Shown in pieces: positions 5,825-29,947 of a DNA stretch of 64,000 bases; within the stretch, counting starts at the first letter, position 1, and every line of letters begins with the position of its first letter. The DNA lies in assembly GCA_964526635.1 (NCBI GenBank), contig CAZGLR010000003.1, positions 8,186 through 72,185 on the forward strand, read 5' to 3'. The DNA comes from an uncultured Ignavibacteriales bacterium (GTDB lineage Bacteria; Zixibacteria; MSB-5A5; GN15; JAAZOE01). The translations under genes and the position numbers were made by a program. The notes under the pieces are model-generated. The model made no database searches, was not told the origin of the DNA, and saw only the letters and a list, made by a program, of their open reading frames with translations.

Positions 5825-6267
5825 CTATTCTTCACCCTTTGAGATTGCATTTAATATTTTAAGCTTTATCTCTTCATTATCTATTTCATCATTGATCACA
5901 GCACAGATAATCTCATGAAGAAGCTCTTTATTAATTTTGCCACCCGCAACATGGTAGCTTATATTCTCCATATCGCGAATAAACCTGCTTGCTACAAAAA
6001 CGTACCCATTGTTTATGAGGAATTTCGCCCCCAACGCAATCGCTATTCTCTTATTTCCGTCCTGAAAACAATGGAAGTTGCATGCACAGAAAAACAAATG
6101 AGTTAACTTTTTCTCAAATGTCGGGTAATAGTCATCATTTTGCATATGGGACAATGCACTCTCAAGAGGTCCCGTATCGATCAGTCCGAAAAGCCCCCGC
6201 CACTTATCTCAACGGTTTTCTTATGAACTTCAATCGCTTGTTCTATCGTAAGATATATGAGAGCCAC
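5825..6267 (-). pseudogene. Fic/Doc family (death-on-curing-like) toxin, frameshifted
   Basis: HCFQDGNKRIA motif. The N-terminus (GTG at 6267, VALIYLTIEQAIEVHKKTVEISGGGF) is in a different frame from GLIDTGPLESALSHMQ...; one base is missing at the T run around 6189-6192. Confidence 0.8.
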
Positions 6268-7301
6268 TACTCGCGCTCCTTGAGACGTTTAAGGACCTCC
6301 TTGGATTCTTCCAGACGTTCAATAAGCTCTTTGCTCTTTTCGCCCAGGAAGCGTTCGAACTCTCTGGAGTCCAATGGAGCGAGATAGTCCTTCAATTGCT
6401 TGTGCAAAGCATCGCGGAATGCAAGATCACGGCTGGCCATTTTACTTCGAGCTTTCTCTACCAATGGTTTCCAATGAGCCTGACTTTCAAACTCAGCGAA
6501 TAGCTCATCAACCTCCCAAGAACTAAGTTTGCGCCCCACGCTCTTGTAGGCGTCTTCGAGAACTTTCGCAAATCCGTATTCATATGCAGAAACCAGATCG
6601 AGAATTTCCGAATAGAATGTATCTCTGACTTTGTCGCTTTCCTGTAGCCGTAGTATTTTCCGTTACTCCTGTGCGTTCTCCTTGAAAATGCTCACGTAAA
6701 TCTTGTTCGTATAGGCGGGATATTTGAAATTGCCCATGTCAACGTAGTCTCGCAGGGCATCAGTGAATTCCTTGCGATAATTCTCTTCCTTGAAATAGGA
6801 GATTATGAAATCTTCATCCCTCTGATTAATATACTTTGTGCCGCCGCCGGTTCTCTGATTGATTGTGTCGATTACAATGTCCAGAATGGCCTGGCGCAGA
6901 ATGCGGGCGCGCTCACTCTCGGTAATGAGCATGGCAAGATTAAGAAATGCCCGAAAATCGAATATCCCCAGCATAGTGGTCTTGTGCAAAGTTTTGCCTA
7001 CGAAATCTGTTTCGTTACCAAACTGCTTTTTGACAGCTATTTTATAGTCCTGCAAGGACTTGCCTCGCAGAATCTCGTAACCGTTTTGCTTGAGCTCAGA
7101 TTCGAATTTCGAGAGGTAATTGTCGATTGTCCGTGGCTCAACTTCAAAGAACTCAGCGACTTGCTCTTTCAAAAGCGTTAGCTTGCCTTGGAATGCAATT
7201 CCTTGCAACTTCGTAGCTTTTTTGATCTCTTCAACGGCGTAGGGATTGTTGAGAATATTCTGGCGGTCAACATCTGATTTGGTCAGGTCTTTACTCATCA
7301 T
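6267..7301 (-). pseudogene. Putative DNA-binding protein partnered with the Doc gene, interrupted by an in-frame TAA
   Basis: ORFs 6663..7301 and 6267..6539 are in the same frame. Reading through TAA 6663-6665 gives continuous ...ENAQE*RKILRLQESDKVRDTFYSEILDLVSAYEYGFAK... Confidence 0.75.
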
Positions 7302-7914
7302 TACCCCCCACGCCGTGCGGAATACTATTTGACGGGTGGCCCGACAATGCTATGCATTGCCGGTTCCCGTTTGCGGCTTTATCATAATCACTACAGTCAA
7401 TTATTGCAACAAATGGGTTTTGTGGGAAATCAAAAGCAAACAATCCCGGCCGAAACCGACAGGTGGCCCGCTGTAAACTTCTGCGGCGGGTTCCAGCCAT
7501 AAGGGCGATGAATTCAACTCATTAGTTTACATCCATCTCATCGGCAGGAAACCGCCCATTGCTACGCAACGGGCGGGCCACCCGGCCTGTCTTTCCCATC
7601 ACCCATCCTGAATCAATGGTACATTTGTCATCGCCCATCCCGCATCGTTTCCAGCAAATCTGCTTGACCGCCCGACATTTGACCGTATACTGTACATATT
7701 CGGGTAATGACCGGATGATTGACTTTTTTGTATGACGGTCCCACGAGGATCGACGGTTGTTGCTGCGGATATAGTCAGAGACGTACCCAAATGGCCCCGA
7801 ACAAGCGGTCGGGCTCTATCTAAAGTGAAGCCCGGTGCCGATGTATGGTACATACGGTGAAGTATCTTCAGTGTCTGAGACAGCTTTGCCGAAACGCGGA
7901 TTAGACTCTGACTG

Positions 7915-8487
7915 ATGACCCAGCGCTCGAAACACAATATCGATTCTTTGATTGCCCGCTGCATCGAGGGCGACGACAGCGCCTGGCATGATCTCATAGA
8001 CCTGATCGCGCCGATGGTGTTTGCTGTCTGCAAAAAAAGCCAGTTATCCCGTGATGAGAGCTTTGATATTTTCGGACAGGTCAGCCTGCAGTTGATCAAT
8101 ACCATTCCGACACTGAAATCGCCGGAAAAAATTATGAGTTTTGTAGCGACCATCACCCGCCGCCGGATATATAAGTTTTATCACCAGGTGATTCTGGAGG
8201 GGGTACGCGATGAGGATGCGCTTTATACCCTGCCGACCGATTCCCACGAGAATCCGGAAACTATCTACGAACTGAGTGAAAAGCGGGAAATGCTGCTGCG
8301 AGCGCTTAATAAACTAACGCCTCGGGAACGACGAATAATCACGCACCTGTTTTTCGATGAAAAAGAGCTGAGTTATGAGGAGATTGCGCAAAAAATGAAC
8401 ATCCCGGTATCATCGATCGGGCCGACCCGGGCCAAGGCGCTGATAAAACTGCGCCGTATCATGGCCTACAAGAGATTTAAATTATAG
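7915..8487 (+). CDS. ECF (sigma-70 group 4) RNA polymerase sigma factor
   Basis: Region 2-like 'LIARCIEGDDSAWHDLIDLIAPMVFAVC...DIFGQV' and region 4 'LNKLTPRERRII...LSYEEIAQKMNIPVSSIGPTRAKALIKLR'. Confidence 0.93.
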   Translation: MTQRSKHNIDSLIARCIEGDDSAWHDLIDLIAPMVFAVCKKSQLSRDESFDIFGQVSLQLINTIPTLKSPEKIMSFVATITRRRIYKFYHQVILEGVRDEDALYTLPTDSHENPETIYELSEKREMLLRALNKLTPRERRIITHLFFDEKELSYEEIAQKMNIPVSSIGPTRAKALIKLRRIMAYKRFKL

Positions 8488-8518
8488 GTATTTTCGCGAA
8501 CCAAAATCGAGACCTATA
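8487..8518 (+). promoter_or_regulatory. Putative ECF promoter, copy 1 (GGTATTTT-N16-GACC-TATA)
   Basis: Overlaps the sigma gene stop codon and ends 14 nt before the ATG at 8533. The same motif and spacing recur at 13349, 13526 and 16713. Confidence 0.65.
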
Positions 8519-8532
8519 ATTAGGATAAGAGT

Positions 8533-9117
8533 ATGAGCAACAAGATCGACATATACAGGCTGATAATCGATTTAATCGAGGGGCGGTTGTCCGGCACAGA
8601 AGCCCGGCGGCTGAAAAAACTCATCGATGAAGATCCTGCGCTCCAGCAGATTATGGACATGGCCACGCGTCTGCGCGCCGAGGGACAGCATATCGGATGG
8701 TCAGATATTCGCGGGGCCGTACATGATTTATTGGATCGCCAGTTACGACAGCATAAATCGCGGCAGGGCAATCTCCGCAAGGCATTCCTGACCTTTGATT
8801 CAAGTTTGTTACCCCTGCCCGAGGGTATACGGCCGGCGACTGTCAGTGAACGGCGCCTGAAATTTCAAATCGAAGATGATGTCCTGGAAATCGGTCTTTA
8901 TCCGTTGTCACTCAATTCATATGAGGTCATCGGCCAGCTTCCCGATACCTTTGCCGATACCGGGCTCTCGGTCGCCATTCGCTGTGGCAACCGGATGATT
9001 GCCGGTGACATCGGCGAATTCGGGGTATTCCATTTTGATCGTGTCCCGACGGGACCATGTAGTATTGTTATCTCGTCCGGCAAAAAGGCAGAAATCGAGG
9101 TCGATCTGGAGATATGA
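8533..9117 (+). CDS. Putative soluble anti-sigma factor / CHAT substrate
   Basis: N-terminal helix pattern 'LIIDLIEGRLSGTEARRLKKLIDEDPALQQ' resembles anti-sigma domains without Zn ligands. Beta-rich C-terminus 'GEFGVFHFDRVPTGPCSIVI'; no TM segment; lies between sigma and CHAT and overlaps the CHAT start (ATGA). Confidence 0.6.
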   Translation: MSNKIDIYRLIIDLIEGRLSGTEARRLKKLIDEDPALQQIMDMATRLRAEGQHIGWSDIRGAVHDLLDRQLRQHKSRQGNLRKAFLTFDSSLLPLPEGIRPATVSERRLKFQIEDDVLEIGLYPLSLNSYEVIGQLPDTFADTGLSVAIRCGNRMIAGDIGEFGVFHFDRVPTGPCSIVISSGKKAEIEVDLEI

Positions 9118-11873
9118 TCACTTCCGCGGACATAAAACGCCTGGGGAAAAAAACTGCCCTCGATCGGTTTATCGCAGTGCAATGCAATAACGACCCGGAC
9201 GTACTGATCGGCTATATCAACACTGCACTAAACGATTTGCTCAATACCGATCTGGCGGCGGCCAGGAAATTACTCCAGCCGATACAGCGCATTTTTGGTC
9301 ACTTATCGGAAGACAATCTGGGCCGCCTTCGCGCTATCGAGGCCCGGCTGGAGCATCGCTGTGGACGAAGCAAACAGGCGGTAAAAAAATATACCGAGGC
9401 AATAACGCATTTAACCCGTGTCCGCAACTACGATAGCGCCGCTCGGGCTAAAATCGGCCTTATGGATGCCTACATGTATCTGGGGCAATACACCGACGCC
9501 CTGGACGTCGGGAAAAAAGCCCTGATATATTTTCGGCGCAAAGACGATATTCGGGCCGCCCGGGTGATGACCAACATCGGCAATGTGTATCATCGGCTGG
9601 ACCGCAATAATTTGGCCCTGCGGTACTACGAACGGGCACGACGGTGGTTTGAAAAGGACGGCGGCATTGCCCTGGCGATTGTCGATTACAATCGAGCCAA
9701 TATATACGCCAATCTCAATCAACTCGATCGGGCTGAAAAGCTGTATCGCCAGGCGGCACAGTTGTACCGACAGCACAATCTCGATCTCGCCGCGGTCAAA
9801 GTCGAGTATTCGCTGGCCTATACCTATTTTCTCCAGGGAAAGTATAGTCATTCCCTGACTGTCTTTGAGCGCGTCCTTGAATCATTTTCGACTCTGGGTG
9901 ATGACAATTCGGCCAATACCACCCGTCTTGACCTTGCCGAAATAAACAATCAGTTGAACCAGTACAGTATTGCAGCGTCGCTTGGCACTCAGGCCCTGGA
10001 CCATTTTCGCAAAACCGGCTTGAGGTACGAAGAGGCCAAAACCTGCTTCTTTATGGCCGAGGCGATGATCGGCATGGGTGACGTCCGTGAAGTCAGCCAT
10101 TACCTGCGCAAGGCCGGATCATTGTTCGATCGGGAACGGAACACGCTCTGGCTGGGCATGATCGAACTGCTGCGATGCCGTCTTCAACTGCATCGGCGCC
10201 GTTTTGCGGAAGCCTTAAAGACAGCGACTCGTGCCCGCGCGTATTTCCATCAAAGCGGCGACAAACGGCGCGGGCGTGATGTGGATATCCTGAGGCTGCA
10301 GGCGGCGATCGCCGCGGGCGCCTCGCCGCAGACAATAATTTCCGGCAAACGCCTCCTGAAGAAAAATCTGGTGGCTTCTCAACAGTATCGTGTCCTGGAT
10401 GCACTGGGGCAGTATCATATGAAAAAACAGGATCCTGAAACTGCGTATGATTACTATTCACGGGCTGTTGATGTCATCGAGCACATGCTGTCGGAACTGG
10501 CTGTAGATGAAACTCAGTTTTTCTTCGCCGCCGACAAATACGGCACATATCTCAATGCCACCGACTGCCTTCTGCGGCTGAATCGACCGCAGGATGCCTT
10601 TATGCAGCATTCCCGGGCACTGTCGATGTTGAACCAAAAAAAGTATTCATCGGGAATTATGCGCGATAAAATCCCCGGGCATCTGCTGGAAAAGCACGAT
10701 CAGCTGAGAGCACGGCTCAAGCAGTTAAATCGCCCGCCGGATACAATGACACGCAGTCTGGCGACGGTTTCGCAACAACATGATCTTGAGCAGCAGTTGT
10801 GGGCGACTGAAAGACGGATGCGGGCGTATGTAATTCCGGAGATTGACAGGCCGGGACCAGGCGCATTGAAACTATCTGATTATGCGGCTTGTCTCGCCGA
10901 CAACGATGCTCTGGTTACATTTATTGGTGATGAAAGCAAGCTCGGCGCGTTCATTGTCAGACCTTCAGGCATCAGATATGTTCACTTGCCGTCATCGTCT
11001 CCCCGCCTCCGGTCGATCGTACGGGAACTGCAGTTTCTCATGGAGAAAAGCGTCTATTCAGGAACGTCGGGAGCACAAACCCGGGCGGGGATCGACGGCT
11101 ATCTGGCGCGGCTCAAGGACATTCTTATCGAACCGCTGGAGTTGGGTGATGATATCGAGCGGGTGATCTTTCTGGTCGATGGTATCTTTGCGCAATTGCC
11201 GTATTCGGCGATTTATGATGATTATCACGGCCGCTTGTGTCAAAGATTTACCATCAACCTGATCACCAATCCCCTTGATTTAAAAAATCACAGCGGGACG
11301 ACGCTGCATTTGAATACGAAACGCTGGGCCGTCTTTGCGGCGTCATCGCCCGGATTGCCGATGGTTGAGTCAGAGGGAAACTCAATTGCCGGTCTCCATT
11401 CGCGTTCAGTACTGTTTTCGGGCGAACGAGCCACCTGCCGACAATTGCGGCAAGAACTGGGCGGCAATAATGGCGCTGTACATATTGCAGCTCACGCGTC
11501 GCGGGCCTCGGAAAATCCGTTGTTTTCGCGTATCTTATTAAACGATGGGCCGTTTTTCCCCTTCGACCTGTTCGAGGCCGGGGTAACAGCCGATGTGGTC
11601 AGTTTATCTGGTTGTCAGACTGCGGCTCCCGGTATATATTATGGTAACTCGTTTAGTCTGGCCAAAGTATTTTATCAGAGTGGAGCGCGCTTTGTCCTGG
11701 CGTCTCTCTGGTCCGTATCAGATAAACTGAGTTCAGCCTTTATGATCAGGTTCTATACAGCACTCAGTGAAGGTGGAGATGTCACCAGTGCATATACGGC
11801 GGCGATGAATGAAATTAGAATGCACAATTCCAATCCGGCCTGTTGGAGCCCCTATATACTCCTTGGTTTGTAG
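9114..11873 (+). CDS. TPR-CHAT (caspase-like) protease
   Basis: Long TPR array followed by a CHAT domain with both catalytic motifs, VHIAAHA (His) and LSGCQT (Cys), plus 'LASLWSVSD' and 'NPACWSPYILLG'. No signal peptide. Confidence 0.93.
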   Translation: MITSADIKRLGKKTALDRFIAVQCNNDPDVLIGYINTALNDLLNTDLAAARKLLQPIQRIFGHLSEDNLGRLRAIEARLEHRCGRSKQAVKKYTEAITHLTRVRNYDSAARAKIGLMDAYMYLGQYTDALDVGKKALIYFRRKDDIRAARVMTNIGNVYHRLDRNNLALRYYERARRWFEKDGGIALAIVDYNRANIYANLNQLDRAEKLYRQAAQLYRQHNLDLAAVKVEYSLAYTYFLQGKYSHSLTVFERVLESFSTLGDDNSANTTRLDLAEINNQLNQYSIAASLGTQALDHFRKTGLRYEEAKTCFFMAEAMIGMGDVREVSHYLRKAGSLFDRERNTLWLGMIELLRCRLQLHRRRFAEALKTATRARAYFHQSGDKRRGRDVDILRLQAAIAAGASPQTIISGKRLLKKNLVASQQYRVLDALGQYHMKKQDPETAYDYYSRAVDVIEHMLSELAVDETQFFFAADKYGTYLNATDCLLRLNRPQDAFMQHSRALSMLNQKKYSSGIMRDKIPGHLLEKHDQLRARLKQLNRPPDTMTRSLATVSQQHDLEQQLWATERRMRAYVIPEIDRPGPGALKLSDYAACLADNDALVTFIGDESKLGAFIVRPSGIRYVHLPSSSPRLRSIVRELQFLMEKSVYSGTSGAQTRAGIDGYLARLKDILIEPLELGDDIERVIFLVDGIFAQLPYSAIYDDYHGRLCQRFTINLITNPLDLKNHSGTTLHLNTKRWAVFAASSPGLPMVESEGNSIAGLHSRSVLFSGERATCRQLRQELGGNNGAVHIAAHASRASENPLFSRILLNDGPFFPFDLFEAGVTADVVSLSGCQTAAPGIYYGNSFSLAKVFYQSGARFVLASLWSVSDKLSSAFMIRFYTALSEGGDVTSAYTAAMNEIRMHNSNPACWSPYILLGL

Positions 11874-11893
11874 GTAATGCGAGGTGTATCACT

Positions 11894-13327
11894 ATGACTA
11901 CCAAATTTAATATTCTCATTTTTGTCGTGGTGGCTGCATGTGTTGTGAACACAGCAGGCTTCGCGCGAGAAAATCCTGTAACGGGACAAGCCATCGCGCG
12001 GCTGATTGCATCGTCAGATCCTGACAGCCTCGAGGGAACACTCGACGAATTCGGAGCCGAATTTGTCGACAGTATTGTCACGGAAAATTTCTACCTGATT
12101 GATTTCCCGCCCGAAGTCCCGATCGAACAGATCCTCCAGGCATTGCAGAACAACCCGCATGTCGATTTTGCCGAACCCAATTTTGAGTTGGAATTGCCGG
12201 AAACTTTCCAGATCAGTATTTCGTTTCCCGACGACAATCCCCCGCCCCATGTCTCGGGCATCAGTCCGCCGGAATTTTACGGACAGCCGGCAATGTACTC
12301 GATAGGCGTGGATTCGGCACAATTGCTGTCAGAGGGCAGCGGCATGCATGTGGCAATAATTGATAATGGCCTTGATTTTTCACATCCGCTATTCGCTGGC
12401 GCCCTGGGCGGTCCCGGCTTCGATTATCTGGATAATGATGACAATGCCGGTGAGGACACCGGCGCAGTCTATGGTCATGGCACATTTGTTGCCGGGTTGA
12501 CCGTCCTGACCGCTCCCGGCTGCCAGATTACGCCCCTGCGGGCATTCAATGGCGACGGGTACGGCACCAGCTTTGCCGTGGCACAATCGATTATCCATGC
12601 GATTGACCACGGTATGGATATTATAAACATGAGTTTCGGGCTTTTCGAATACAGCCAGATGATCGCGGCAACCTGCAGCAGCGCGGTCGATGCCGGAATT
12701 ATTCTGGTGGCGGCGGCCGGCAACGGCGGCTCCGATCAGCCGGCCTATCCGGCAGCGCTGCCTGGCGTTATAGCAGTATCGGCGGTTGATACGACTGAAT
12801 TGCTGGCGGCTTTTTCAAACTACGGCGATCATATCGACATATGCGCACCGGGGGTTGATCTTTACAGTGCTCTGGCCGGTGAATTCGAATGGGGTACCTG
12901 GAGCGGGACGTCGTTTGCAGCCCCTATCGTCAGCGGCGTTTGTGCTCTGGCCCAGGCGGTTAATGGCAGCTTTTCGCCCTATGAGATGGAAGCACATCTT
13001 CGGCAAACAGCGTCGATAGATCTGGCCTGGGGGACGATTGACCCGCCGAGTACATTTTATGGCCATGGTTTACTGGACGCCTATTCAGCGACTTTGAACG
13101 CTTCAAATACTGTCACCCAGACCGATTGTGGCGACATCAACGGCGACGAACAGGTCAACACCGGCGATGTGATCTTCCTTATTTCTCATATATTCGGAGG
13201 TGGTCCGGGACCGGAGCCCCCGGCACAGGGCGATGTCAACTGTGATTTGATGCTCAACGTCAGTGATCCGGTGCATCTGATCGGATATATTTTCAGGGGT
13301 GGTCCCGATCCGTGTTGTGCTGAATAA
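11894..13327 (+). CDS. Secreted S8 subtilase with C-terminal dockerin-like domain
   Basis: Signal peptide; catalytic triad motifs IIDNG, HGTFVAG, GTSFAAP; C-terminal CGDINGDEQVNTGDVIFLI...GDVNCD...CC. Confidence 0.92.
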   Translation: MTTKFNILIFVVVAACVVNTAGFARENPVTGQAIARLIASSDPDSLEGTLDEFGAEFVDSIVTENFYLIDFPPEVPIEQILQALQNNPHVDFAEPNFELELPETFQISISFPDDNPPPHVSGISPPEFYGQPAMYSIGVDSAQLLSEGSGMHVAIIDNGLDFSHPLFAGALGGPGFDYLDNDDNAGEDTGAVYGHGTFVAGLTVLTAPGCQITPLRAFNGDGYGTSFAVAQSIIHAIDHGMDIINMSFGLFEYSQMIAATCSSAVDAGIILVAAAGNGGSDQPAYPAALPGVIAVSAVDTTELLAAFSNYGDHIDICAPGVDLYSALAGEFEWGTWSGTSFAAPIVSGVCALAQAVNGSFSPYEMEAHLRQTASIDLAWGTIDPPSTFYGHGLLDAYSATLNASNTVTQTDCGDINGDEQVNTGDVIFLISHIFGGGPGPEPPAQGDVNCDLMLNVSDPVHLIGYIFRGGPDPCCAE

Positions 13328-13348
13328 ATCCACCTGCCGTAAATAAAT

Positions 13349-13376
13349 GGTATTTTAGGGGCATTTTTTAGACACC
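13349..13376 (+). promoter_or_regulatory. Putative ECF promoter, copy 2 (GGTATTTT-N16-CACC)
   Basis: Exact motif and spacing, located just after the subtilase stop codon. Confidence 0.55.
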
Positions 13377-13420
13377 ATTCTGTGGATTGCCATTACGTGG
13401 CACTCTCTGACTATTAAGTG

Positions 13421-13452
13421 AGAGGCGAGATTTTTTCTCGTCTCTTTTTTTT
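13421..13452 (+). terminator. Intrinsic terminator
   Basis: AGAGGCGAGA / TCTCGTCTCT stem followed by a T run. Confidence 0.75.
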
Positions 13453-13525
13453 GTCTGTGCCAAGCCGGCTTACGGAGGCTATTGATCAGACTTAGGCATA
13501 AAACTCTCAAGAAATTAGGATTTTG

Positions 13526-13557
13526 GGTATTTTTTCCGGTTGTCCCTCACACCTGTA
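13526..13557 (+). promoter_or_regulatory. Putative ECF promoter, copy 3 (GGTATTTT-N16-CACC-TGTA)
   Basis: Exact motif, about 150 nt upstream of the ATG at 13707. Confidence 0.65.
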
Positions 13558-13706
13558 TATGATTGTACACCTTATTAGTACATTACCGCACATAAGATGA
13601 CCGGGCCATCCTGGACCTGACCGGCCCGGTCATCACAAGAAAACTATGAAACTAAAATATAACAGACACCTGGAACATTCAGTCTCTCAAACATAGGAGG
13701 ATTAAC

Positions 13707-14168
13707 ATGAAAAGGCTGTTAGCCTTAATTGCCATGCTCGGACTTCTGGCGGCTCCCGTTTTCGCCGATGATTGTATTGAAATCGATTTTGAGGCGGAAC
13801 CCGATATTAACGTCGGCGTTGTTTACTTCTTTTTCGGTGAAGTCATCAATTGCAGCGATGAAGCCGGTGAAGTGTTTTTCTCGCTGACGCTTGAATTCGA
13901 AGGCATGAGCTATGATCTGCCGGAGTTCAGCGTTTATATGGGTGCGGGTGAAACCGTCAGCCGATCGTTCCCATTTGTCATCCCCCCGATTTTCCCGGAG
14001 GGTGAAGTCACCATCACCGTTACTGCCACCAAGGGTGAGGCCACTGACACCGAGACGATTTATCTCACCGTCGTGCACCCGAATAGCGGCGACGCCATAC
14101 CCCGCAAGGGTGACATTCCCAACCGGCTGGAAAGCGAAACTGCCACAAGTAACGCCGGCAGCAAGTAA
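13707..14168 (+). CDS. Small secreted acidic protein with a probable Ig-like fold
   Basis: RBS AGGGAGG; signal peptide MKRLLALIAMLGLLAAPVFA; alternating beta-strand pattern; two Cys. Confidence 0.8.
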   Translation: MKRLLALIAMLGLLAAPVFADDCIEIDFEAEPDINVGVVYFFFGEVINCSDEAGEVFFSLTLEFEGMSYDLPEFSVYMGAGETVSRSFPFVIPPIFPEGEVTITVTATKGEATDTETIYLTVVHPNSGDAIPRKGDIPNRLESETATSNAGSK

Positions 14169-14204
14169 ACGATACTAACCGTATTTTCTCTCGTGCTTAT
14201 GCAG

Positions 14205-14242
14205 AAACGGGACAGACGCCTCTCCGGCGTTGTCCCGTTTTT
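14205..14242 (+). terminator. Intrinsic terminator-like hairpin
   Basis: AAACGGGACA-GACGCC / GGCGT-TGTCCCGTTT followed by TT. Confidence 0.65.
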
Positions 14243-14262
14243 AAACGTATCCGGAGCATCTC

Positions 14263-16611
14263 ATGAAACAATATTATGCCCTACTGACGCTTTGTGTTTG
14301 TGTACTGGCCGGCCTGTGCCCGGCACTGGATCTTCAGTTTACCGTTTCCGGCGAAGCTCCCGGTGATCAGCTCGGCGATGCTGTCACGGCAGTTGATTTC
14401 AATGGCGACGGATACGATGATATCGTCATCGGCGCGCCCGCTTCGGATGCCAATGGAACCTCTTCGGGTAAAGTATATCTCTATCTCGGCGGCCCCGGCG
14501 CTGATGATATCGCGGATTTTGAATTCGTAGGTCCCGATGGCTCGTTTTTCGGCGCGGCTATTGCCGCCGCCGGTGATTTCAATAATGACACCTATCCCGA
14601 TTTAATCATCGGCGCACCATATTATTCGGCCATCGCCACCCGGGCGGGGGCTGCCTTTATTTACTTCGGAGGACCATCGGCTGATACCACGGCCGACCTG
14701 GTGTTATTTGGCGGAACCAGTCTGGATTATTATGGTACAGCCGTAGCCGGTGGATTTGACTTCAATGGCGACACTATTGATGATATCGCAATAGGTGCAT
14801 ATAAAGCCGAATATGATACTCTTGACGATGCCGGACTGGTAGCGGTGCACCTGGGTTCGGCGGCGGTTGACACGGTCGCGGATATTATCCTGACCGGCGG
14901 CGCCGATGGCGAACGCTTTGGCTTTGCCCTGACCGGCGGCAATTTCAATGGTGACGCCTTTGATGATATCGCAGTCGGTGCCTACAGTTATGACGACTGG
15001 ACTATAAACCTGGGACGGGTATATCTATTCAACGGCGGTGCGACACCTGATTCAATCTATGATTTTGCTGTTGGTGGCGAAGCCCAGGGATCCAGTTTCG
15101 GATATAGCGTAGCTGCTGGCGACGTCAATAATGATACCTATGATGATCTTCTTGTCGGTGCTCAGGCGTTTATCATCGGCCAGGCGGCGGCCGGCAAAAT
15201 ATATTTGTTTGAGGGCAGTGTGTCTATGGACACTCTTGCCGATTTTTCCTATACCCGAGGCATCGCCGATCCGGATAATCTCGGTTTCGATGTATCTACC
15301 GGAGTTGATATTACCGGTGACGCTATTGATGATTTCTGGGCGGGGTACCCGGGCGGCGACGGCGGTATCCTGTTTGAGAGCAGCAGTTACGTCATCGATA
15401 CCACCCTCGGCGGATCATCGGGCGAAAATTTTGGCCACGCCGCCGGGCTGGCCAGGGGCTTTTTTGGCAATCAAAAACAGGCCGTAGCAGTCGGTGCCCA
15501 CGCCTATGATAGTTTCCGCGGCCGCACCTATTTTTATCTTCGGGATAACTCCAGTGGCGCCAATCAGCCGCCGGTACTGGATCCGATTGGACCACAAGAG
15601 GTTGTCGAAGGAAACACTTTAGACTTCACAGTAACTGCCTCGGATCCCGACGGCGCCGATCCGGCACTGTCGGCCTCACTGCCACTGCCCGATGGCGCTT
15701 TTTTTAACGAAGCCACCGGTATCTTCGACTGGACCCCGGATACCACTCAGGCCGGCATATATAATGTTACGTTTTTTGCCGACGACGGTATCGACCGAGA
15801 TTCAGAAATCGTCACCATAACTGTCATAAATTATACCGGCGAAAACCTTCCCCCGGTCCTTGACCCGATTGGTCCCAAAGCGATCGCTGAGTTATTGCAT
15901 TTAAGTTTTACTGTCACAGCCTCGGATCCCGATGGCCCGACTCCGGCACTTTCTACCTCCCTCCCGCTGCCCGATGGCGCCACCTTCAATACCGGCAGCG
16001 GCGTATTCAGCTGGATCCCCGATACTACGCAGGCCGGCGTCTATGAAGTGACGTTTTATGCCGATGATGGCCAGGTCAAAGATTCTGAAATAGTGACGAT
16101 TACTGTCACCAATAATACCAACATACCGCCGGAGCTAAATCCGATTGGCGGTAAAACCATTGACGTCGACAGTACCTTAAATTTTGACGTGACGGCCTCT
16201 GACCCCGACGGTCCTACCCCGATGATTTTTGCCTCGACCCTGCCCGCTGGGGCGACTTTATCGAGCAATGGCGATGGCTCGCGGACATTTAACTGGATAC
16301 CTGACTCGACACAAGCGGGATCACATAGTGTGACGTTTTACGCCTTCGATGGTCAGCTTACTGATAGCGAGCTGGTGGTAATTCAGGTGATTGGTCCGAT
16401 AGTGTGTGGCGATGCCAACAGCGACTACACGGTCAATGTCGGCGATCCGGTATTTCTGATCAATTATGTTTTCAAGGGCGGGCCGGCAGCGGTACCCTTG
16501 TGTCGGTCGGATGCTAATGGCGACACGTTTGTAAACGTCGGCGATGCGGTGGCATTGATCAATTTTGTCTTCTCTGGTGGCCCGGCCCCGGTGGAACCGT
16601 GTTGTCCATAG
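14263..16611 (+). CDS. Secreted FG-GAP (integrin-alpha-like) propeller protein with three Ig/cadherin-like repeats and a dockerin-like tail
   Basis: Repeated DFNGDGYDDIVIGAP-type motifs; three 'NxPPxLxPIG...TASDPDG...LPxGA...FxWxPD' units; C-terminal CGDANSD...CCP. Confidence 0.9.
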   Translation: MKQYYALLTLCVCVLAGLCPALDLQFTVSGEAPGDQLGDAVTAVDFNGDGYDDIVIGAPASDANGTSSGKVYLYLGGPGADDIADFEFVGPDGSFFGAAIAAAGDFNNDTYPDLIIGAPYYSAIATRAGAAFIYFGGPSADTTADLVLFGGTSLDYYGTAVAGGFDFNGDTIDDIAIGAYKAEYDTLDDAGLVAVHLGSAAVDTVADIILTGGADGERFGFALTGGNFNGDAFDDIAVGAYSYDDWTINLGRVYLFNGGATPDSIYDFAVGGEAQGSSFGYSVAAGDVNNDTYDDLLVGAQAFIIGQAAAGKIYLFEGSVSMDTLADFSYTRGIADPDNLGFDVSTGVDITGDAIDDFWAGYPGGDGGILFESSSYVIDTTLGGSSGENFGHAAGLARGFFGNQKQAVAVGAHAYDSFRGRTYFYLRDNSSGANQPPVLDPIGPQEVVEGNTLDFTVTASDPDGADPALSASLPLPDGAFFNEATGIFDWTPDTTQAGIYNVTFFADDGIDRDSEIVTITVINYTGENLPPVLDPIGPKAIAELLHLSFTVTASDPDGPTPALSTSLPLPDGATFNTGSGVFSWIPDTTQAGVYEVTFYADDGQVKDSEIVTITVTNNTNIPPELNPIGGKTIDVDSTLNFDVTASDPDGPTPMIFASTLPAGATLSSNGDGSRTFNWIPDSTQAGSHSVTFYAFDGQLTDSELVVIQVIGPIVCGDANSDYTVNVGDPVFLINYVFKGGPAAVPLCRSDANGDTFVNVGDAVALINFVFSGGPAPVEPCCP

Positions 16612-16712
16612 TGTAGTGATCATTCTCGTTTTAGTTTAATTGTTAGTGGCTGACAGCCTCCGGGGTGTCATGCGATAATTCTTTCACCTTTTTTAATAAT
16701 TCTGAATTATCA

Positions 16713-16744
16713 GGTATTTTTTTCATTCGTATTTCGCACCCTAT
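16713..16744 (+). promoter_or_regulatory. Putative ECF promoter, copy 4 (GGTATTTT-N16-CACC-CTAT)
   Basis: Exact motif, about 210 nt upstream of the ATG at 16951. Confidence 0.65.
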
Positions 16745-16950
16745 ATATGACAAGGGGGAGAAGACACTGCCATATTGTAGGGGTTTCGATGATTCTGTGC
16801 CTTCGCCGCTATACAACTCGGCTCGCTCGCACATATAAAAGCATGTATTTATCACATCTGAATGACATGATCGTCCCCCCATAATTGTCATCAGGTGCGC
16901 ACAAACCCACTGACTTACTACCTTTTTCAGTTTTTCATAGGAGATACAGT

Positions 16951-18831
16951 ATGAAGAAGCATAATTCCGTCTCACGTATCATTCTTTACAGCCTATTAGC
17001 TCTGGCCCTTACCGCCTCGATCAGTCTATGGGTCGGCTGTAGTGAAGAAAGCGGTATTGCCGATGTATCCAGCCAGTCCAATCAACTGACCCTGCTCAAC
17101 GAGGAAAATCCCCGGGTGCAGGCGGTCACACGCATTCAGGATTTGTCGACCGAAGCATTATTCTCACATCCCGACGTGGTTGGAACCGGGACAGGTCTTG
17201 ACGACAACGGCAACCCCACAGTAGTCGTTTATACGACCGAGGAGGTCACCCAGTACGGAAGCATGAGTGTCGAGCAGCTGCAAACCTCCAAAGCTCTGGG
17301 TGCGATTCCCGAATCGATTGAAGGACTGCCGGTGAAAGTGAAAGTGACCGGCAAATTTGTCGTTTACGCCGATCCCACGGCCCGCTTCAGCCGACCGGTA
17401 CCGATTGGCGTGTCAACCGGCCATCCTGATATCACCGCCGGCACAATCGGCTGCCGCGTAATTGACGGTTCAGGCAATGTCTATGCCCTGAGTAATAATC
17501 ATGTCTATGCCAATATCAACTCCGCCAGCATCGGCGACAATGTACTCCAGCCCGGTCCGACCGACGGGGGTACCGATCCGGCGGATGCTATTGGCACGCT
17601 CTATGATTATGAGTATATCGAAATGGGGGGGGCGTACAACTACATCGACGCCGCTATTGCCGCAGTAACAACTTCAACGGTTGGCTATTCGACGCCATCG
17701 GGCGATGGCTACGGCACACCCAGTTCGTCTATCAAGTCGGCCACCATTGGCATGAAAGTCCAGAAGTATGGCCGTACCACCGGCTGGACTTTCGGCGAAG
17801 TAGCCGAATTAAACGTGACGGTCAATGTCTGCTATGTGCCGCGCGGTCCATTCAGCTGCGCCGAGTACGCAACCATGACTGATCAGATCGGTATCACCCC
17901 GGGAACATTCAGTGCCGGTGGTGACTCCGGATCTCTTATCGTTACTGATGATGGAAATAAGAACCCGGTGGGGCTTCTTTTTGCGGGTAGCTCGGATCGC
18001 ACTCTGGCAAATCGTATTGATCTGGTTCTGAACCGCTTTAATGTGACAGTCGATGATGGCAGTGGCGGCGGACCGACCAACAATCCGCCGACAGCCGACT
18101 TCACCTATACAACTTCGGAGTTGACGGCGTATTTCACTGATCAGAGCACCGATTCCGACGGCAGTATCGCGTCCTGGAATTGGAACTTCGGTGATGGCTC
18201 AACCTCGACCGCCCAGAATCCGTCGCACACCTATGGTACCGATGGTACCTATACGGTTTCGCTGACGGTTACTGATAACGACGGTGCGACCGATAACACC
18301 TCACAAAGTGTGACTGTCTCCGGCAGCACCACCAATAATCCGCCGACAGCCGACTTCACCTACACGACTTCGGATCTGACGGCGTATTTCACTGATCAGA
18401 GTACTGATTCCGACGGCAGTATCGCGTCCTGGAATTGGAACTTCGGTGATGGCTCTTCATCAACCGCACAGAATCCGTCGCATGCCTATGGTACCGATGG
18501 CACCTATACGGTTTCGTTGACAGTTACTGATAACGACGGTGCGACTGATAATACCTCGCAGAGTGTGACTGTCTCCAGCGGCGGCACCGGCGGTATTACC
18601 CTCTCGGTGGTTGGCTATAAGGTTCGCGGTGTCAAGCATGCTGATCTCACCTGGAGCGGTGCTGACGGAACCGATGTGGAAATCTATCGCGATGGCACAT
18701 TGATTGCGACGACGACCAATGATGGTTCCTACACCGACAATTCCGGTCAGCGTGGTGGCGGATCGTTCACCTACAAAGTATGTGAAATCGGCGGTTCGGT
18801 CTGTTCGAATCAGGTAACGGTGACTTATTAA
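16951..18831 (+). CDS. Secreted (probably lipoprotein) trypsin-like serine protease with prodomain and two PKD domains
   Basis: RBS AGGAG; hydrophobic leader ending in WVGC; triad motifs LSNNHV, IDAA, GDSGS; two 'WNWNFGDG' PKD units. Confidence 0.88.
   Translation: MKKHNSVSRIILYSLLALALTASISLWVGCSEESGIADVSSQSNQLTLLNEENPRVQAVTRIQDLSTEALFSHPDVVGTGTGLDDNGNPTVVVYTTEEVTQYGSMSVEQLQTSKALGAIPESIEGLPVKVKVTGKFVVYADPTARFSRPVPIGVSTGHPDITAGTIGCRVIDGSGNVYALSNNHVYANINSASIGDNVLQPGPTDGGTDPADAIGTLYDYEYIEMGGAYNYIDAAIAAVTTSTVGYSTPSGDGYGTPSSSIKSATIGMKVQKYGRTTGWTFGEVAELNVTVNVCYVPRGPFSCAEYATMTDQIGITPGTFSAGGDSGSLIVTDDGNKNPVGLLFAGSSDRTLANRIDLVLNRFNVTVDDGSGGGPTNNPPTADFTYTTSELTAYFTDQSTDSDGSIASWNWNFGDGSTSTAQNPSHTYGTDGTYTVSLTVTDNDGATDNTSQSVTVSGSTTNNPPTADFTYTTSDLTAYFTDQSTDSDGSIASWNWNFGDGSSSTAQNPSHAYGTDGTYTVSLTVTDNDGATDNTSQSVTVSSGGTGGITLSVVGYKVRGVKHADLTWSGADGTDVEIYRDGTLIATTTNDGSYTDNSGQRGGGSFTYKVCEIGGSVCSNQVTVTY
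18076..18576 (+). repeat. Near-identical tandem duplication with a 255-bp period, encoding two PKD domains
   Basis: accaa(c/t)aatccgccgacagccgacttcacc starts at 18076 and 18331; differences are mostly synonymous. Confidence 0.9.
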
Positions 18832-18868
18832 CCGGAATCTGAAGTCCAAAAGTACTTTTTGATAGATT

Positions 18869-18903
18869 CACGAGCCCCTATATTGTGGGGGCTCGTGTTT
18901 TTT
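18869..18903 (+). terminator. Intrinsic terminator
   Basis: CACGAGCCCC / GGGGCTCGTG stem followed by TTTTTT. Confidence 0.8.
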
Positions 18904-18917
18904 ATGGGTGACTTATT

Positions 18918-19139
18918 ATGCCAAAAAGAGATATCGCAATTGTCCTCAGTGAACACACGCCGAAGTTACTGACCTTACCGGGTGTGGTCGGGACAGGCGT
19001 GGGATCATCAGATGGGACGCCATGCATTTCCGTGTTTGTGCATGAATTGACTGATGATATCCATGGTGCAATACCGACCGAGATCGAGGGGCACCCGGTG
19101 ATCATTACCGAAACCGGCCAGTTCCGCGCCGGATTATAA
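18918..19139 (+). CDS. Stand-alone homologue of the upstream protease prodomain (putative inhibitor)
   Basis: PGVVGTGVG...AIPTEIEGHPVIITETGQF aligns with PDVVGTGTG...AIPESIEGLPVKVKVTGKF of the 16951 protein. Confidence 0.75.
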   Translation: MPKRDIAIVLSEHTPKLLTLPGVVGTGVGSSDGTPCISVFVHELTDDIHGAIPTEIEGHPVIITETGQFRAGL

Positions 19140-19295
19140 CTGCCCATACCCGAATCAATCTGCACCGTACTCGCCATTTCGCTGAAAAAATTATCCATTT
19201 TCAGACAAAGGCTTATCCAAAATATATCGGGTCCCGCCTGTTCATCTGACGATATTAATTTATTCACGACTTTTTTGCAGTCGGCAATAAATATA

Positions 19296-19328
19296 GATAT
19301 TTTTTCATATTCGAACTGCACACCTAAT
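19296..19328 (+). promoter_or_regulatory. Putative ECF promoter, variant copy 5 (GATATTTT-N17-CACC-TAAT)
   Basis: One mismatch and a spacer one base longer than the other four; about 240 nt upstream of the ATG at 19566. Confidence 0.5.
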
Positions 19329-19565
19329 AATAACAAAGGGGGGAATGACACTTCCTTCAATGGAGTATTCGTGTACCAGTATGCCTGCCTATCGGAGTCT
19401 TTACAGTCTAATTTCAAGAACAATTTCTTACCAATATATCTTCCCCATACTACACAAATAAACTCGATGCAAGAGAGGAGGATTGACACTTTAATCGAAT
19501 TTTGCCTTGGAGTTGGCAACAAAATCCCTACTGCGTTATAGCCCTTCACCGTCATCGGAGGAACA

Positions 19566-22268
19566 ATGAAAAAATTTGGAATTCTTTTTTTACTTCTTTT
19601 TCTAACTCTGGTCGTAACGTCATCGGCCGCCGAAAAGTTTATGAAGGTAGATCGTGATTTCACTATACCATCATTCGTAGGTTATGTGCAAAACCAGCTC
19701 ATTGTGGTTTTGAATGACGATGTAAGTGTTGATCATGCCCGCGATGTCCGTTCGCAGCGGGCGCTGTCGAATTACTCCGGTTTTGATCCTCTGGCCCAGC
19801 GTTTTGCCGTGGCCGATTCCCGGCCCCAGTTCGCCGGTGCCGATCGCAAAGCCGGTGCTCAGCAGCTTGCCCGGCATTATAAAGTAACAATCGGAAAAGG
19901 AACGATCGAAGAGGCCAAAGCTGCCTATGAGCGCAATCCGCAGGTTAAACGGGTTGAACTTATTGGTTTGCATACAACCTATGCGACGCCGAATGATACG
20001 TACTACGACAACCCGCCGGCGGAGTTTCCCTATGATCAATGGCATTATTGGGCCAATCACAGTGTCGATGCCGATCTGGCCTGGGATCTCAACTCCGGTT
20101 CGGAAACCGTGCTGGTGGGTATTCTCGATTCCGGAACCCGGTATTTTCACATAGACCTTGGCGGCAACAGCACGCAATGGGGACCGGGCGCACCATTTGC
20201 CGGCGGAAATATTTTCATCAACCCGAATGAAACTCCGGGTGATGGCGTAGATAACGACGGTAACGGTTATGTCGATGATGTTATCGGTTATGACTTTATT
20301 GAGACAACCGGTGGCATTGGCGGCGTTTCCTGCATCGATCAGGACTGTGGTACCAAGGATAATGATCCGGATGACGGCAACGGTCATGGTACTCATACCG
20401 CCGGTACGGTTGGTGCAATTACCAACAATGCCCGTCAGGTTGCCGGCGTTGCCGGTGGTTTCAGCGATGGGACGACCAGCGGCGTCGGTAATGGTGTAAA
20501 AATCGTGCCTTGCCGCATGGGCTACCATGCATCATATCGCGGCATGGTAACCGGTATCGTCGACATGGCTGCCGCCGCCGAAGCGATGTACTATATGGCT
20601 GACCTGGTGGACGCCGGTCATAACGTTGCCGCGATCAACTGCTCGTGGGGCAGTTCCAACAGTGGCGGTCTTGGTGCCGCCGCCGATTATCTGATTTCAC
20701 GTGATGTGGTGATTGTCGTGGCGGCGGGTAACAGCAATTCGACAAGCGCCAGTTATCTCGGTACGCGGGGTGACTGCCTTGACGTCGCCGCCACGGATAA
20801 AAACGGCAATGGCGCCTCGTTTACCAACTACGGTTCATGGGTCGATGTCGCCGCTCCCGGCGTGGAGATTCTGAGTACGTATCGCAATCCCGATGATTCC
20901 GATCCCGCGGCGCATTACATCGCGCTGCTCGACGGTACCTCGATGTCGGCCCCGCATGTCGTCGGTATTGTTGCATTGTTGGAATCCTGCAACCCGGCTC
21001 TGACAGCTGCCGACAAATTCAATCTGGTCGTCGGAAACACGACGCCATATTCCGACAGCCGCGATCTTGGTTCCGGTATTGCCAATGCCTATTTGGCCCT
21101 GCAGGCAGCCAATTGCAGCAGCACGTGTACGGAAACCACCCCGGTGGCCGATTTCAGCGGATCGCCGACCAGTGGTGATGCGCCGTTGTTGGTTGCATTT
21201 ACTGACCTGTCTACGAATAATCCCTCGTCATGGTCATGGGACTTCGGTGATGGCGGCACCTCGACCGCCCAGAATCCGAGTTATACCTATGATGTCGCGG
21301 GAACGTACACGGTTTCGTTGACGGCATCCAATTGTGCCGGCTCCAATATCGTAACCAAGACCGGTTACATCACGGTAAGCGAACCACCGTGCACCGAAAC
21401 CATTCCGGTGGCCGATTTCAGCGGCAGTCCGACCAGCGGCGATGCGCCATTGACGGTTACCTTTACGGATCTGTCGACGAATAATCCGTCGTCATGGTCA
21501 TGGGACTTCGGCGACGGTGGCACATCGACGGCGCAGAATCCGAGCTATACGTATAGCGCTGCCGGAACCTATACGGTCGCGCTGACGGCCGGTAACTGTG
21601 CCGGTTCAAACACGGTAACCAAGACAGATTACATCACGGTAACGCAGTCGCAGCAACAGGAAATGCATGTTCAAAACATCACTCTCACCCGTCAGGCGGC
21701 CGGTGGGCCAAATCGGGTCGCCGTTGCCACGGTCACAGTATATGATCAGGCCGGACTGCCAGTTTCGGGAGCGACTGTTTACGGCGTCTTCAATGCACCT
21801 AATACCAGTACCAAAACCGGTGTCACCAACAGTTCGGGTATCGCAACTATTCAATCCGATAAAACCCGTACGCCACCGGCTGATTGGTGTTTTGAAGTCA
21901 CCGATATTACCGCCACCGGATACGTGTACAACAGCACCGCCAATCTGGTTATTTACGCCTGCGAAAGCGGCTGGGTATATAAGATCGGTAATCCGACGAT
22001 ACTGCCGACTGAAATGGCGCTGAGCAACCATCCGAATCCGTTTAATCCCACGACGACAATCGGCTTCGCGTTGACGCAGGACACTCATGCACGGCTCGAT
22101 ATTTTCAATATCGCCGGGCAAAAAGTAGCCACTCTGGTTGACGAATATCTCACCGCCGGTGAGTATTCGGTTGAATGGGACGGCAGACATGTCGCCAGTG
22201 GCATCTATTTGTATCGCCTGAGCACTCTTGAAAGCAGTCAGACCAAAAAGATGGTTCTGATGAAGTAA
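19566..22268 (+). CDS. Secreted S8 subtilase with two PKD domains and a FlgD-Ig/T9SS-like C-terminal sorting domain
   Basis: Signal peptide; ILDSG, HGTHTAG, GTSMSAP; two WSWDFGDG repeats (264-bp period, 21126 and 21390); C-terminus 'NHPNPFNPTTTI...IFNIAGQKV...ASGIYLYRL...KKMVLMK'. Confidence 0.93.
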   Translation: MKKFGILFLLLFLTLVVTSSAAEKFMKVDRDFTIPSFVGYVQNQLIVVLNDDVSVDHARDVRSQRALSNYSGFDPLAQRFAVADSRPQFAGADRKAGAQQLARHYKVTIGKGTIEEAKAAYERNPQVKRVELIGLHTTYATPNDTYYDNPPAEFPYDQWHYWANHSVDADLAWDLNSGSETVLVGILDSGTRYFHIDLGGNSTQWGPGAPFAGGNIFINPNETPGDGVDNDGNGYVDDVIGYDFIETTGGIGGVSCIDQDCGTKDNDPDDGNGHGTHTAGTVGAITNNARQVAGVAGGFSDGTTSGVGNGVKIVPCRMGYHASYRGMVTGIVDMAAAAEAMYYMADLVDAGHNVAAINCSWGSSNSGGLGAAADYLISRDVVIVVAAGNSNSTSASYLGTRGDCLDVAATDKNGNGASFTNYGSWVDVAAPGVEILSTYRNPDDSDPAAHYIALLDGTSMSAPHVVGIVALLESCNPALTAADKFNLVVGNTTPYSDSRDLGSGIANAYLALQAANCSSTCTETTPVADFSGSPTSGDAPLLVAFTDLSTNNPSSWSWDFGDGGTSTAQNPSYTYDVAGTYTVSLTASNCAGSNIVTKTGYITVSEPPCTETIPVADFSGSPTSGDAPLTVTFTDLSTNNPSSWSWDFGDGGTSTAQNPSYTYSAAGTYTVALTAGNCAGSNTVTKTDYITVTQSQQQEMHVQNITLTRQAAGGPNRVAVATVTVYDQAGLPVSGATVYGVFNAPNTSTKTGVTNSSGIATIQSDKTRTPPADWCFEVTDITATGYVYNSTANLVIYACESGWVYKIGNPTILPTEMALSNHPNPFNPTTTIGFALTQDTHARLDIFNIAGQKVATLVDEYLTAGEYSVEWDGRHVASGIYLYRLSTLESSQTKKMVLMK

Positions 22269-29450: not shown

Positions 29451-29452
29451 CG

Positions 29453-29842: not shown

Positions 29843-29947
29843 AGCAGCCTCTCCATCGTAATGAGAGGTTATCCGGCAGACCCCTGCCGGCGGCCGTGTC
29901 GGAGGTTCAGCATCATCCCTGCCTCCGCCGGTGACAACAGTGTTACA

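Follow-up and report, generated by a model that had tools for sequence, protein, structure and literature searches.

The DNA stretch analyzed here, called the window, comprises 64,000 nucleotides of contig CAZGLR010000003.1 from an uncultured Ignavibacteriales bacterium (GCA_964526635.1). Nine open reading frames (ORFs) between positions 7915 and 22268 lie on a single strand (+), and all are present with the domain types given in an earlier note on this DNA (below, the original prediction). The first four form the core of the module reported here: a sigma factor of the extracytoplasmic function (ECF) type, a protein of 194 amino acids (aa) named 8533, a protease with tetratricopeptide repeats and a CHAT domain (TPR-CHAT), and a subtilase (S8a). 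The genes downstream are a variable regulon. A peptide inside S8a, missed by the original prediction, is the likely ligand of the TPR part, as judged from sequence conservation and co-variation. The core genes are:

7915..8487 (+): ECF sigma factor of an ECF54-like lineage (TIGR02937, 74.9 bits, cut-off 42.9)
8533..9117 (+): 194-aa protein 8533, soluble anti-sigma candidate by its model fold
9114..11873 (+): TPR-CHAT protease, predicted cytoplasmic (CHAT E 2e-36; PF12770, 126 bits)
11894..13327 (+): subtilase S8a with signal peptide, prodomain, D157/H195/S340 triad and dockerin-like tail (ATG at 11894)

The start of the CHAT gene overlaps the stop of 8533 (ATGA). Modules were counted where the CHAT protein had at least 820 aa without gaps and S8a was adjacent; gapped, truncated and split CHAT copies were dropped beforehand. 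This gave 115 modules, 74 after removal of identical ones. All four core genes were found within the fetched DNA in 65 of the 74. Gene order is nearly fixed, and CHAT is divergent in a few loci (L038, L154, L164). The co-conservation in relatives on which the original prediction depended is far beyond chance, given these counts and a paralogous sigma-194aa-CHAT-S8 module in the source genome (G000; 3.47 Mb searched, 215 contigs, 100% complete by marker genes). This second, more divergent copy lies on contig C11 (L001:7367-12780), contains the small-RNA-like element described below and has no secreted gene directly 3'.

Relatives of the module belong mostly to Candidatus Zixiibacteriota and some to Ignavibacteriales; Zixiibacteriota is also where the nearest Atlas cluster occurs most often. 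A word-index search with 8533 returned only itself among 276 candidates. By profile search 105 representatives were found at E≤1e-30, and matches to the protein occur in 24 of 61 related genomes. Across the phylum 113 of 285 genomes match at E≤0.001; 73 of these genomes have matches at E≤1e-15, and the remaining matches are partial. A scan of Chloroflexota-like metagenomes gave six short loci, one with an anti-sigma followed by a TPR-CHAT and none long enough for an S8. The two best DNA matches were the microbial-mat metagenomes X1 and X2, from one study; no RNA data set was listed.

A distant subfamily of proteins of about 190-200 aa shares mainly the DS…R loop of 8533 described below (L036:16798-19904; weak matches for example in G044:C115, G054:C79, G038:C17 and G046:C163), and L186 is a full module with such a protein. 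CHAT genes split by a frameshift or stop were seen at L039:5576-8351, L054:12678-15433, L130:1711-4473, L136:1605-4342 and L165:3604-6362. Three of these loci come from genomes where modules occur in tandem or as a second copy, and the splits may reflect either decay or assembly error. L036 also has a second divergent sigma and TPR protein. An apparent 8533-CHAT fusion in G051 was rejected as an assembly gap read as X.

Junction peptide, TPR-CHAT protease and anti-sigma candidate

The predicted TPR ligand is located at the junction between the prodomain and the catalytic domain of S8a:

12197..12232 (+): junction peptide PETFQISISFPD, S8a residues 102-113, identified by conservation and co-variation

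The core of the window peptide is QISISFPD, and the family pattern is P-E-x-x-Q-[IMV]-S-[QI]-[SG]-F-P-D. Q106 is found in 72/74 modules, F111 in 68/74 and D113 in 74/74, and most members have no basic residue in the peptide. The catalytic triad of S8a is kept (D and H in 74/74, S in 73/74). The N-terminus is signal-peptide-like in 72/74, so a free peptide would need import. In L037, L044, L052 and L054 two to four Cys-rich repeats of about 75 aa are inserted between signal peptide and prodomain. Outside S8a, the proteins of the first 32 loci gave no extra copy of the peptide pattern; G000 has seven other six-frame matches.

The CHAT domain contains the motifs HIAAH at 790 and LSGCQT at 831. 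Their dyad H794/C834 is invariant in 74/74, and the His/Cys motifs are thus as intact as had been noted originally. Separase, Csx29 and DdvA are fold neighbours. A membrane-like segment was identified in 2/74 CHATs. Within the TPR part the residues N154, N193, N196, N343, D273 and E276 are invariant (74/74), and Asn, Arg and acidic residues form a ladder on the helices. The closest solved sequences to this part are the peptide-binding TPRs of LGN, kinesin light chain and Rap, the matches to RapJ and RapF being weak. In TPR domains alternate helices line a peptide groove. Residues 118, 121, 122, 157, 160, 229 and 266 are on such alternate helices (106-122, 145-161, 224-240, 264-280), together with N154, D273 and E276.

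Several of these residues change together with the junction peptide. Among 315,060 S8a × CHAT column pairs ranked by corrected mutual information, the pair S8a109-CHAT229 is first (z 10.4), 110-118 fourth and 110-117 ninth. The pairings at 109/229 are Q-Q 37, I-K 18, I-R 2, H-H 2 and D-R 1; those at 110/118 are S-D 33, G-E 14 and D-S 2. Several changes also look matched in chemistry: R229 occurs with an acidic 109, R81 or R/K121 with an acidic 110, and K/R121 with an acidic 108. On a tree built without the tested columns, the eight CHAT columns that co-change most with each of S8a 108, 109, 110 and 111 include 8, 7, 7 and 8, respectively, from CHAT 60-330 (255 of 810 columns); 138 control S8a columns have a mean of 1.9 and a maximum of 5. 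On a second tree, with 65 modules and 1,459 ranked columns from all four proteins, the top columns for S8a 107-111 are CHAT 266, 122, 229, 121 and 122, all TPR. Five loci have aberrant peptides, and there the deviation at conserved CHAT columns is 12-15% in 101-300 and 0-6% in 301-919 (56 modules). The two copies in G000 differ at the peptide (QISISFPD in the window, QQQYVKPD in C11), and the C11 copy has the TPR residues A118, N121, F122 and I229. Anti-sigma × CHAT and anti-sigma × sigma comparisons gave no standout pair, with top z of 7.0 and 5.7, within the ancestry background. Taken together, these co-changes make it quite probable that the peptide binds the TPR of CHAT. The peptide as merely S8a's own processing site is not favoured, because S8a catalytic columns make up only 3 of 60 top columns; a dual role as processing site and TPR ligand is possible.

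Protein 8533 has no Pfam or NCBIfam match at E≤0.01. Its model (pLDDT 86) consists of four N-terminal helices (1-75), a loop (90-106) and a C-terminal Ig-like/CarboxypepD_reg-like beta-sandwich. A fold search against 48,161 chains placed four independent anti-sigmas among the best 50 rows for the helical part: RsiW (Z 6.7, root-mean-square deviation (rmsd) 6.2, 68 aligned), MucA (Z 6.5, rmsd 2.0, 52 aligned), RslA (Z 6.0, rmsd 4.5, 62 aligned) and PupR (Z 5.4, rmsd 3.0, 54 aligned). The gene adjoins that of the sigma factor. Weak Pfam matches within the family are CarboxypepD_reg (PF13620) in 6 of 30 members, with a best E of 0.0022, and zf-HC2 in 3 of 30. Some distant homologues keep zinc-type CxxC pairs, and zf-HC2 reaches 10% in an Atlas look-alike cluster. 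No membrane segment was found (0/69). The model therefore makes 8533 a likely soluble class I anti-sigma, in agreement, as far as the fold goes, with its original assignment as an inhibitor partnering the sigma factor, to which it very probably binds. A conserved motif is located in the loop, which lies between the two domains of the model:

8794..8832 (+): FDS…PEGIR motif with predicted cut site R100; D89, S90 and R100 invariant in 69/69

These three residues stay invariant once 20 distant homologues join the alignment. Separases cut after Arg in (S/D/E)xExxR (PMC11506125). From the invariant loop and the separase-like fold of CHAT, a cut after R100 is inferred, and CHAT probably cuts 8533 there.

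Promoter motif, downstream genes and neighbouring features

A motif search in the 450 bases 3' of S8a, in 28 loci of relatives excluding G000, recovered GTATTTTT…C[AT]C de novo, in the general form GTAT-N~19-C[AT]C. With a matrix from 13 of the relatives' sites, the window positions 13527 and 16714 were first and second of 29 matches above 17 bits in 3.47 Mb. Candidate promoters in the window are:

7664..7691 (+): candidate promoter of sigma-70 type upstream of the ECF gene, TTGACC-16-TATACT (10/12 consensus matches, called from the consensus match alone)
8488..8520 (+): candidate ECF promoter GTAT…GAC, lying between sigma stop and anti-sigma start (score 17.5)
13350..13382 (+): candidate ECF promoter (score 16.9; rank 5 genome-wide with the retrained matrix)
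13527..13560 (+): candidate ECF promoter, best site of the genome (rank 1 with both matrices)
16714..16747 (+): candidate ECF promoter, second-best site of the genome (rank 2 with both matrices)
18852 (+): possible promoter of the 73-aa ORF (score 15.6), uncertain because it overlaps a terminator at 18869-18897
19297..19330 (+): candidate ECF promoter whose first base deviates (score 20.0; missed by the strict pattern)

The genes downstream of the core are:

13707..14168 (+): 153-aa exported protein, no assigned function
14263..16611 (+): exported FG-GAP propeller/He_PIG protein with three Ig-like repeats and dockerin-like tail
16951..18831 (+): trypsin-like lipoprotein protease with two PKD domains and a weak S64-like match; His, Asp and Ser motifs present
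18918..19139 (+): 73-aa stand-alone prodomain-like ORF, accessory
19566..22268 (+): S8b, a large secreted subtilase with PKD domains and a sorting tail; the regulon's commonest member

With the retrained matrix the window sites rank 1, 2, 5 and 15 of 57 sites above 13 bits, and 18852 and 19297 fall outside the top 40. The FG-GAP gene has no full motif of its own. In the gap between sigma and anti-sigma, which was not used for training, 16 of 31 relatives' regions score at least 12, 14 of them at -43 to -50. The controls reaching this score were 0/28 CHAT-upstream regions and 1/33 sigma-upstream regions; the 99th percentile of shuffled sequences was 12.0. In the larger set the motif occurs after S8a in 40/70 loci (training loci included), in the sigma/anti-sigma gap in 26/65 (some windows misplaced by long sigma tails) and upstream of sigma in 9/61. 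Judged by a simple rule based on hydrophobicity, the product of the next gene looks exported in 26 of the 40 loci that have the motif and in 6 of the 28 that lack it. Thirty S8b orthologue loci from 88 matching genomes were compared. The strict motif, which misses the window's own site, precedes S8b in 9 of the 18 genomes that have the module and in none of the 12 that lack it, several of the nine adjoining the module. The -10 core, xAC or CTC, is consistent within loci but tracks one clade split, and the best sigma columns are weak (normalised mutual information at most 0.4).

On these sequence patterns it is highly probable that the sigma factor reads the motif. The motif is absent upstream of the window's own sigma gene (score 3.0), and in most loci the sigma factor likely does not transcribe its own gene. 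From the motif positions, it likely drives the inhibitor, CHAT, S8a and the local secreted genes; the 8488 site is the candidate that would drive the first three. High-scoring distal sites in G000, at C124:414(-), C8:47844(-), C10:38353(-) and C192:671(-), are possible regulon members or chance matches. The original link between the sigma factor and the downstream secreted genes is supported by the shared motif, which precedes most of them. Control of an adjacent protease arsenal stands on the same motif, although not as a single fixed set: the four-gene core is followed by variable genes.

S8b orthologues often directly follow the module in relatives. The 153-aa and FG-GAP genes travel as a pair, usually upstream of sigma; ten distinct FG-GAP relatives lie near modules. 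An FG-GAP domain is present as predicted, and the label "adhesin" comes from domain content alone. Close relatives of the trypsin-like gene are found beside modules in only two other loci. The 73-aa ORF shares 39% identity with the trypsin-like protein's N-terminus and has relatives in 52/285 genomes. Neighbour clusters, judged by eye without a family scan, revealed no recurring importer or defence gene.

On the 3' side the 13350 promoter motif adjoins a further element:

13384..13456 (+): candidate small RNA with 5' hairpin, short linker and intrinsic terminator at 13420-13446 (fold z -5.5)

Similar elements are present in seven other loci (L001:12898-12976, L032:8866-8945, L033:8959-9037, L034:8888-8968, L035:8877-8957, L036:10930-11007(-) and L076:4506-4578). 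Compensatory changes occur in 7 of 12 terminator pairs, and Rfam gave no match. The conserved linker TTCTTCCGA… could pair by complementarity with TCGGAGGAA, a sequence found ahead of the S8b start. In the window the element is shorter, without the linker core complementary to TCGGAGGAA. A GC-rich hairpin followed by a T run (14211-14235) separates the 153-aa gene from the FG-GAP gene and may limit read-through into the latter.

Upstream of the module, at 5825-7301 (-), a gene is present in pieces of 212, 90 and 109 aa. The 212-aa piece matches PADLOC PDC-M59A with E 1.7e-63 over positions 2-203 of the 338 in the profile, and the 109-aa piece matches a Fic/DOC fragment, the whole being apparently a broken candidate defence gene. 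Downstream, at 24331-30616 (-), a TetR-like regulator, an ATP-grasp protein, a pyridoxal-dependent decarboxylase, an MFS-like protein and, recognised by inspection, an S-adenosylmethionine-decarboxylase-like ORF form a cluster, possibly a small biosynthetic unit. The second TPR signalling protein of the window, a Ser/Thr kinase fused to MalT-like TPR repeats, is encoded at 57504-60398 (+). A dockerin-like domain of about 65 aa ends dozens of G000 proteins on many contigs, which suggests a lineage-wide surface-anchoring or sorting tag.

Proposed circuit and competing explanations

The best model is a peptide-gated positive-feedback circuit controlling protease secretion, for which the sequence evidence speaks somewhat more than against it. 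S8a would be exported, mature and release the junction peptide QISISFPD. The peptide would re-enter the cell and bind the TPR groove of cytoplasmic CHAT, which, once activated, would cut the anti-sigma after R100 and free the ECF sigma factor. The freed sigma would transcribe the anti-sigma-CHAT-S8a operon and the downstream secreted genes from GTAT-N~19-C[AT]C promoters. Feedback would be positive through S8a and damped by newly made anti-sigma. From the co-variation between peptide and sensor, the peptide likely activates CHAT; release outside, import and activation combined have a slightly better than even chance. For import, an OPT-family peptide importer is present in G000, unlinked to the module, and SBP_bac_5 gave one partial match. 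The release model in the original prediction has gained ground in part, through the anti-sigma fold, the invariant His/Cys dyad, independence from CRISPR and the shared promoter motif. No cas genes were found among the scanned window proteins, and neither cas1 nor RAMP was found in G000. For the part on predation or antagonism, support is limited to the presence of secreted proteases.

Several observations weigh against the peptide-gated circuit. Pairs driven by ancestry alone reach z 8.2, and exceptions to the pairings exist (I109 with Q229, Q109 with K229, M109 with Q229 twice, G110 with D118). S8a 107 has no TPR enrichment (3 of the top 8). Position 110 is noisy on the second tree, where four of its 12 best columns are CHAT. 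Sign tests over independent pairs did not reach significance, either with 3 same, 0 opposite and 3 unchanged (p 0.25) or with 1/0/1. The fold matches of 8533 all have Z below 8, a range that the fold tool calls possibly ordinary, and the ExxR pattern is not strict, because E97 occurs in only 41 of 69 anti-sigmas. The promoter motif is rich in AT, a score of 12 is reached in 4 of 31 reverse-strand controls, 57 sites exceed 13 bits genome-wide, and 30 of 70 loci have no motif after S8a. In the order, 149 of 160 genomes have OPT, whether or not they carry the module; the Opp ATPase tail (oligo_HPY) and POT families were not found in G000, and no importer recurs beside modules in the neighbour clusters judged by eye. 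Co-variation is itself silent on activation versus inhibition, and on free peptide versus precursor.

The co-variation would be explained without import if the TPR bound the junction segment of unexported, cytoplasmic S8a precursor and so sensed secretion load or blockage, not cell density, the later steps being the same. The lack of a linked importer and of a detected Opp ATPase tail in G000 fits such an export checkpoint, as does the S8 of an ECF54-type locus in Nonomuraea, which by inspection has no signal peptide. S8a itself has a signal-peptide-like start in 72/74, and its peptide diversifies between lineages and between paralogues of one genome as specificity labels would; making more secreted protease during an export block would also be counter-productive. 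Precursor sensing is thus considered unlikely. It is more doubtful still that the peptide inhibits CHAT, as in Rap/Phr, or that CHAT processes or chaperones pro-S8a, with the anti-sigma loop serving as a docking site alone. Co-variation gives no indication of sign, Rap proteins with bound peptide are under the control of their pheromones (PMC11343458), and cutting Csx30 does not by itself obviously release the sigma (PMC10028731), all of which such schemes accommodate. They fit poorly with a peptide mostly without basic residues beside an anti-sigma with an invariant loop Arg; under inhibition, feedback through S8a would turn negative and suit a multi-gene secreted regulon less well.

Characterised TPR-CHAT/sigma systems are all defence-linked (PMC10028731, PMC11506125). 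CHAT might accordingly respond to stress or to something foreign, such as the phage protein of Craspase- or DdvA-like sensing, within a defence or stress switch, the co-variation being shared ancestry. The non-significant sign tests and the broken candidate defence gene (PDC-M59A) just upstream in the window are compatible with this. What makes it very improbable is that the co-changes concentrate in TPR helices far beyond the 138 control columns, that the motif-bearing outputs are exported proteins, and that no defence gene recurs beside modules in the neighbour clusters judged by eye.

The peptide-gated circuit bears on a wider question, the activating signal of stand-alone bacterial TPR-CHAT proteases. 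The authors of the DdvA study state that their own model is not open to validation until the signal is found (PMC11506125). The present locus names a candidate ligand, candidate receptor residues (118, 121, 122, 229), a candidate cut site (R100) and a promoter, on predicted-soluble proteins. If the circuit is true, no ligand other than RNA would have been defined for a TPR-CHAT of bacteria before this peptide, peptide-receptor pairs would have diversified into specificity groups even between the two copies of G000, and a mechanism would be at hand for the ECF54-type gene set, present in several phyla. Peptide signalling would extend beyond Bacillota, and natural orthogonal peptide-switched proteases would be available. 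Cell-to-cell signalling with a novel architecture, found in a candidate phylum of diderms, with a pheromone cut from a secreted protease under its own control, imported and read by a TPR-CHAT that destroys an anti-sigma, is a tentative reading with slightly less for it than against it.

Comparison with known systems

The genomic context of ECF54 was reportedly described by Huang et al. in 2015. It comprises a CarboxypepD_reg-like protein at +1, a subtilase and a TPR-CHAT, and is limited to Actinobacteria (Casas-Pastor et al. 2021, PMC7826278; PMC8999054); the predicted promoter is GTATCAG (-35)/CTCC (-10), and no anti-sigma was recognised (PMC7826278). The gene set is thus already known and catalogued (PMC7826278), which the original prediction missed. 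New are the anti-sigma fold with its DS…R loop, the promoter motif with its local regulon, and the residue-level peptide/TPR pairs. No description of a peptide ligand or of anti-sigma cleavage for this gene set was found in the literature outside subscription journals and preprint supplements.

The window module shares with ECF54 an ECF sigma factor, the CarboxypepD_reg-like +1 protein and the TPR-CHAT and subtilase neighbours. In contrast to ECF54, its relatives are mostly Candidatus Zixiibacteriota and not Actinobacteria only, and 8533 has an anti-sigma-domain fold, whereas ECF54 was described without an anti-sigma. With these two departures the module is considered ECF54-like. The first four bases of the promoter and its -10 core are the same in the window (GTATTTT…C[AT]C) and the tail differs; GTATCA variants occur in some relatives. 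In Nonomuraea gerenzanensis, an ECF54-type locus encodes a sigma homologue, a homologous +1 protein that carries the DS…R motif, an S8 preceded by GTATCAG…CTCTC, and a CHAT. The family profile gives 140.6 bits with its sigma, and 131 and 126 with two Streptomyces sigmas without this context. 8533 matches its +1 protein at E 8.5e-11 (four-locus set) and by hhalign at E 0.005. Among four actinobacterial sigma neighbourhoods, L219 has the full set, one has S8 only, and two have neither.

Type III-E Craspase resembles the window module in its cytoplasmic TPR-CHAT with a His/Cys dyad, in a soluble sigma inhibitor as (here predicted) substrate, and in sigma sites within its own locus (PMC10028731). 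Unlike it, the window genome has no detected Cas7-11, cas1 or RAMP, the predicted input is a peptide and not RNA, and the outputs are secreted proteins. The window CHAT scores 18.1 bits to the Csx29 model NF041237 (cut-off 300), and no likeness of 8533 to Csx30 was seen among the matches listed in the sequence search or the best 50 fold rows. DdvS/DdvA of Myxococcus xanthus likewise combines an ECF sigma, a class I anti-sigma domain and a TPR-CHAT, with release by cleavage proposed (PMC11506125). DdvA is a single transmembrane protein with a periplasmic CHAT and controls CBASS/CRISPR (PMC11506125), whereas the window anti-sigma and CHAT are separate predicted-soluble proteins. With the RRNPP(A) systems Rap-Phr and NprR the module would, in the proposed model, share a cytoplasmic TPR receptor with conserved Asn, lineage-specific peptide-receptor pairs and a short secreted peptide processed outside and re-imported (PMC11343458). 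It differs from them in that its peptide is embedded in a protease precursor and not in a small dedicated gene, its output domain is a caspase-like protease and not a DNA-binding or phosphatase domain, and its host is not of the Bacillota and has no Opp ATPase tail found in G000. The window module thus has a Craspase/DdvA-like output side and an RRNPP-like input side, and is a member of none of these systems.

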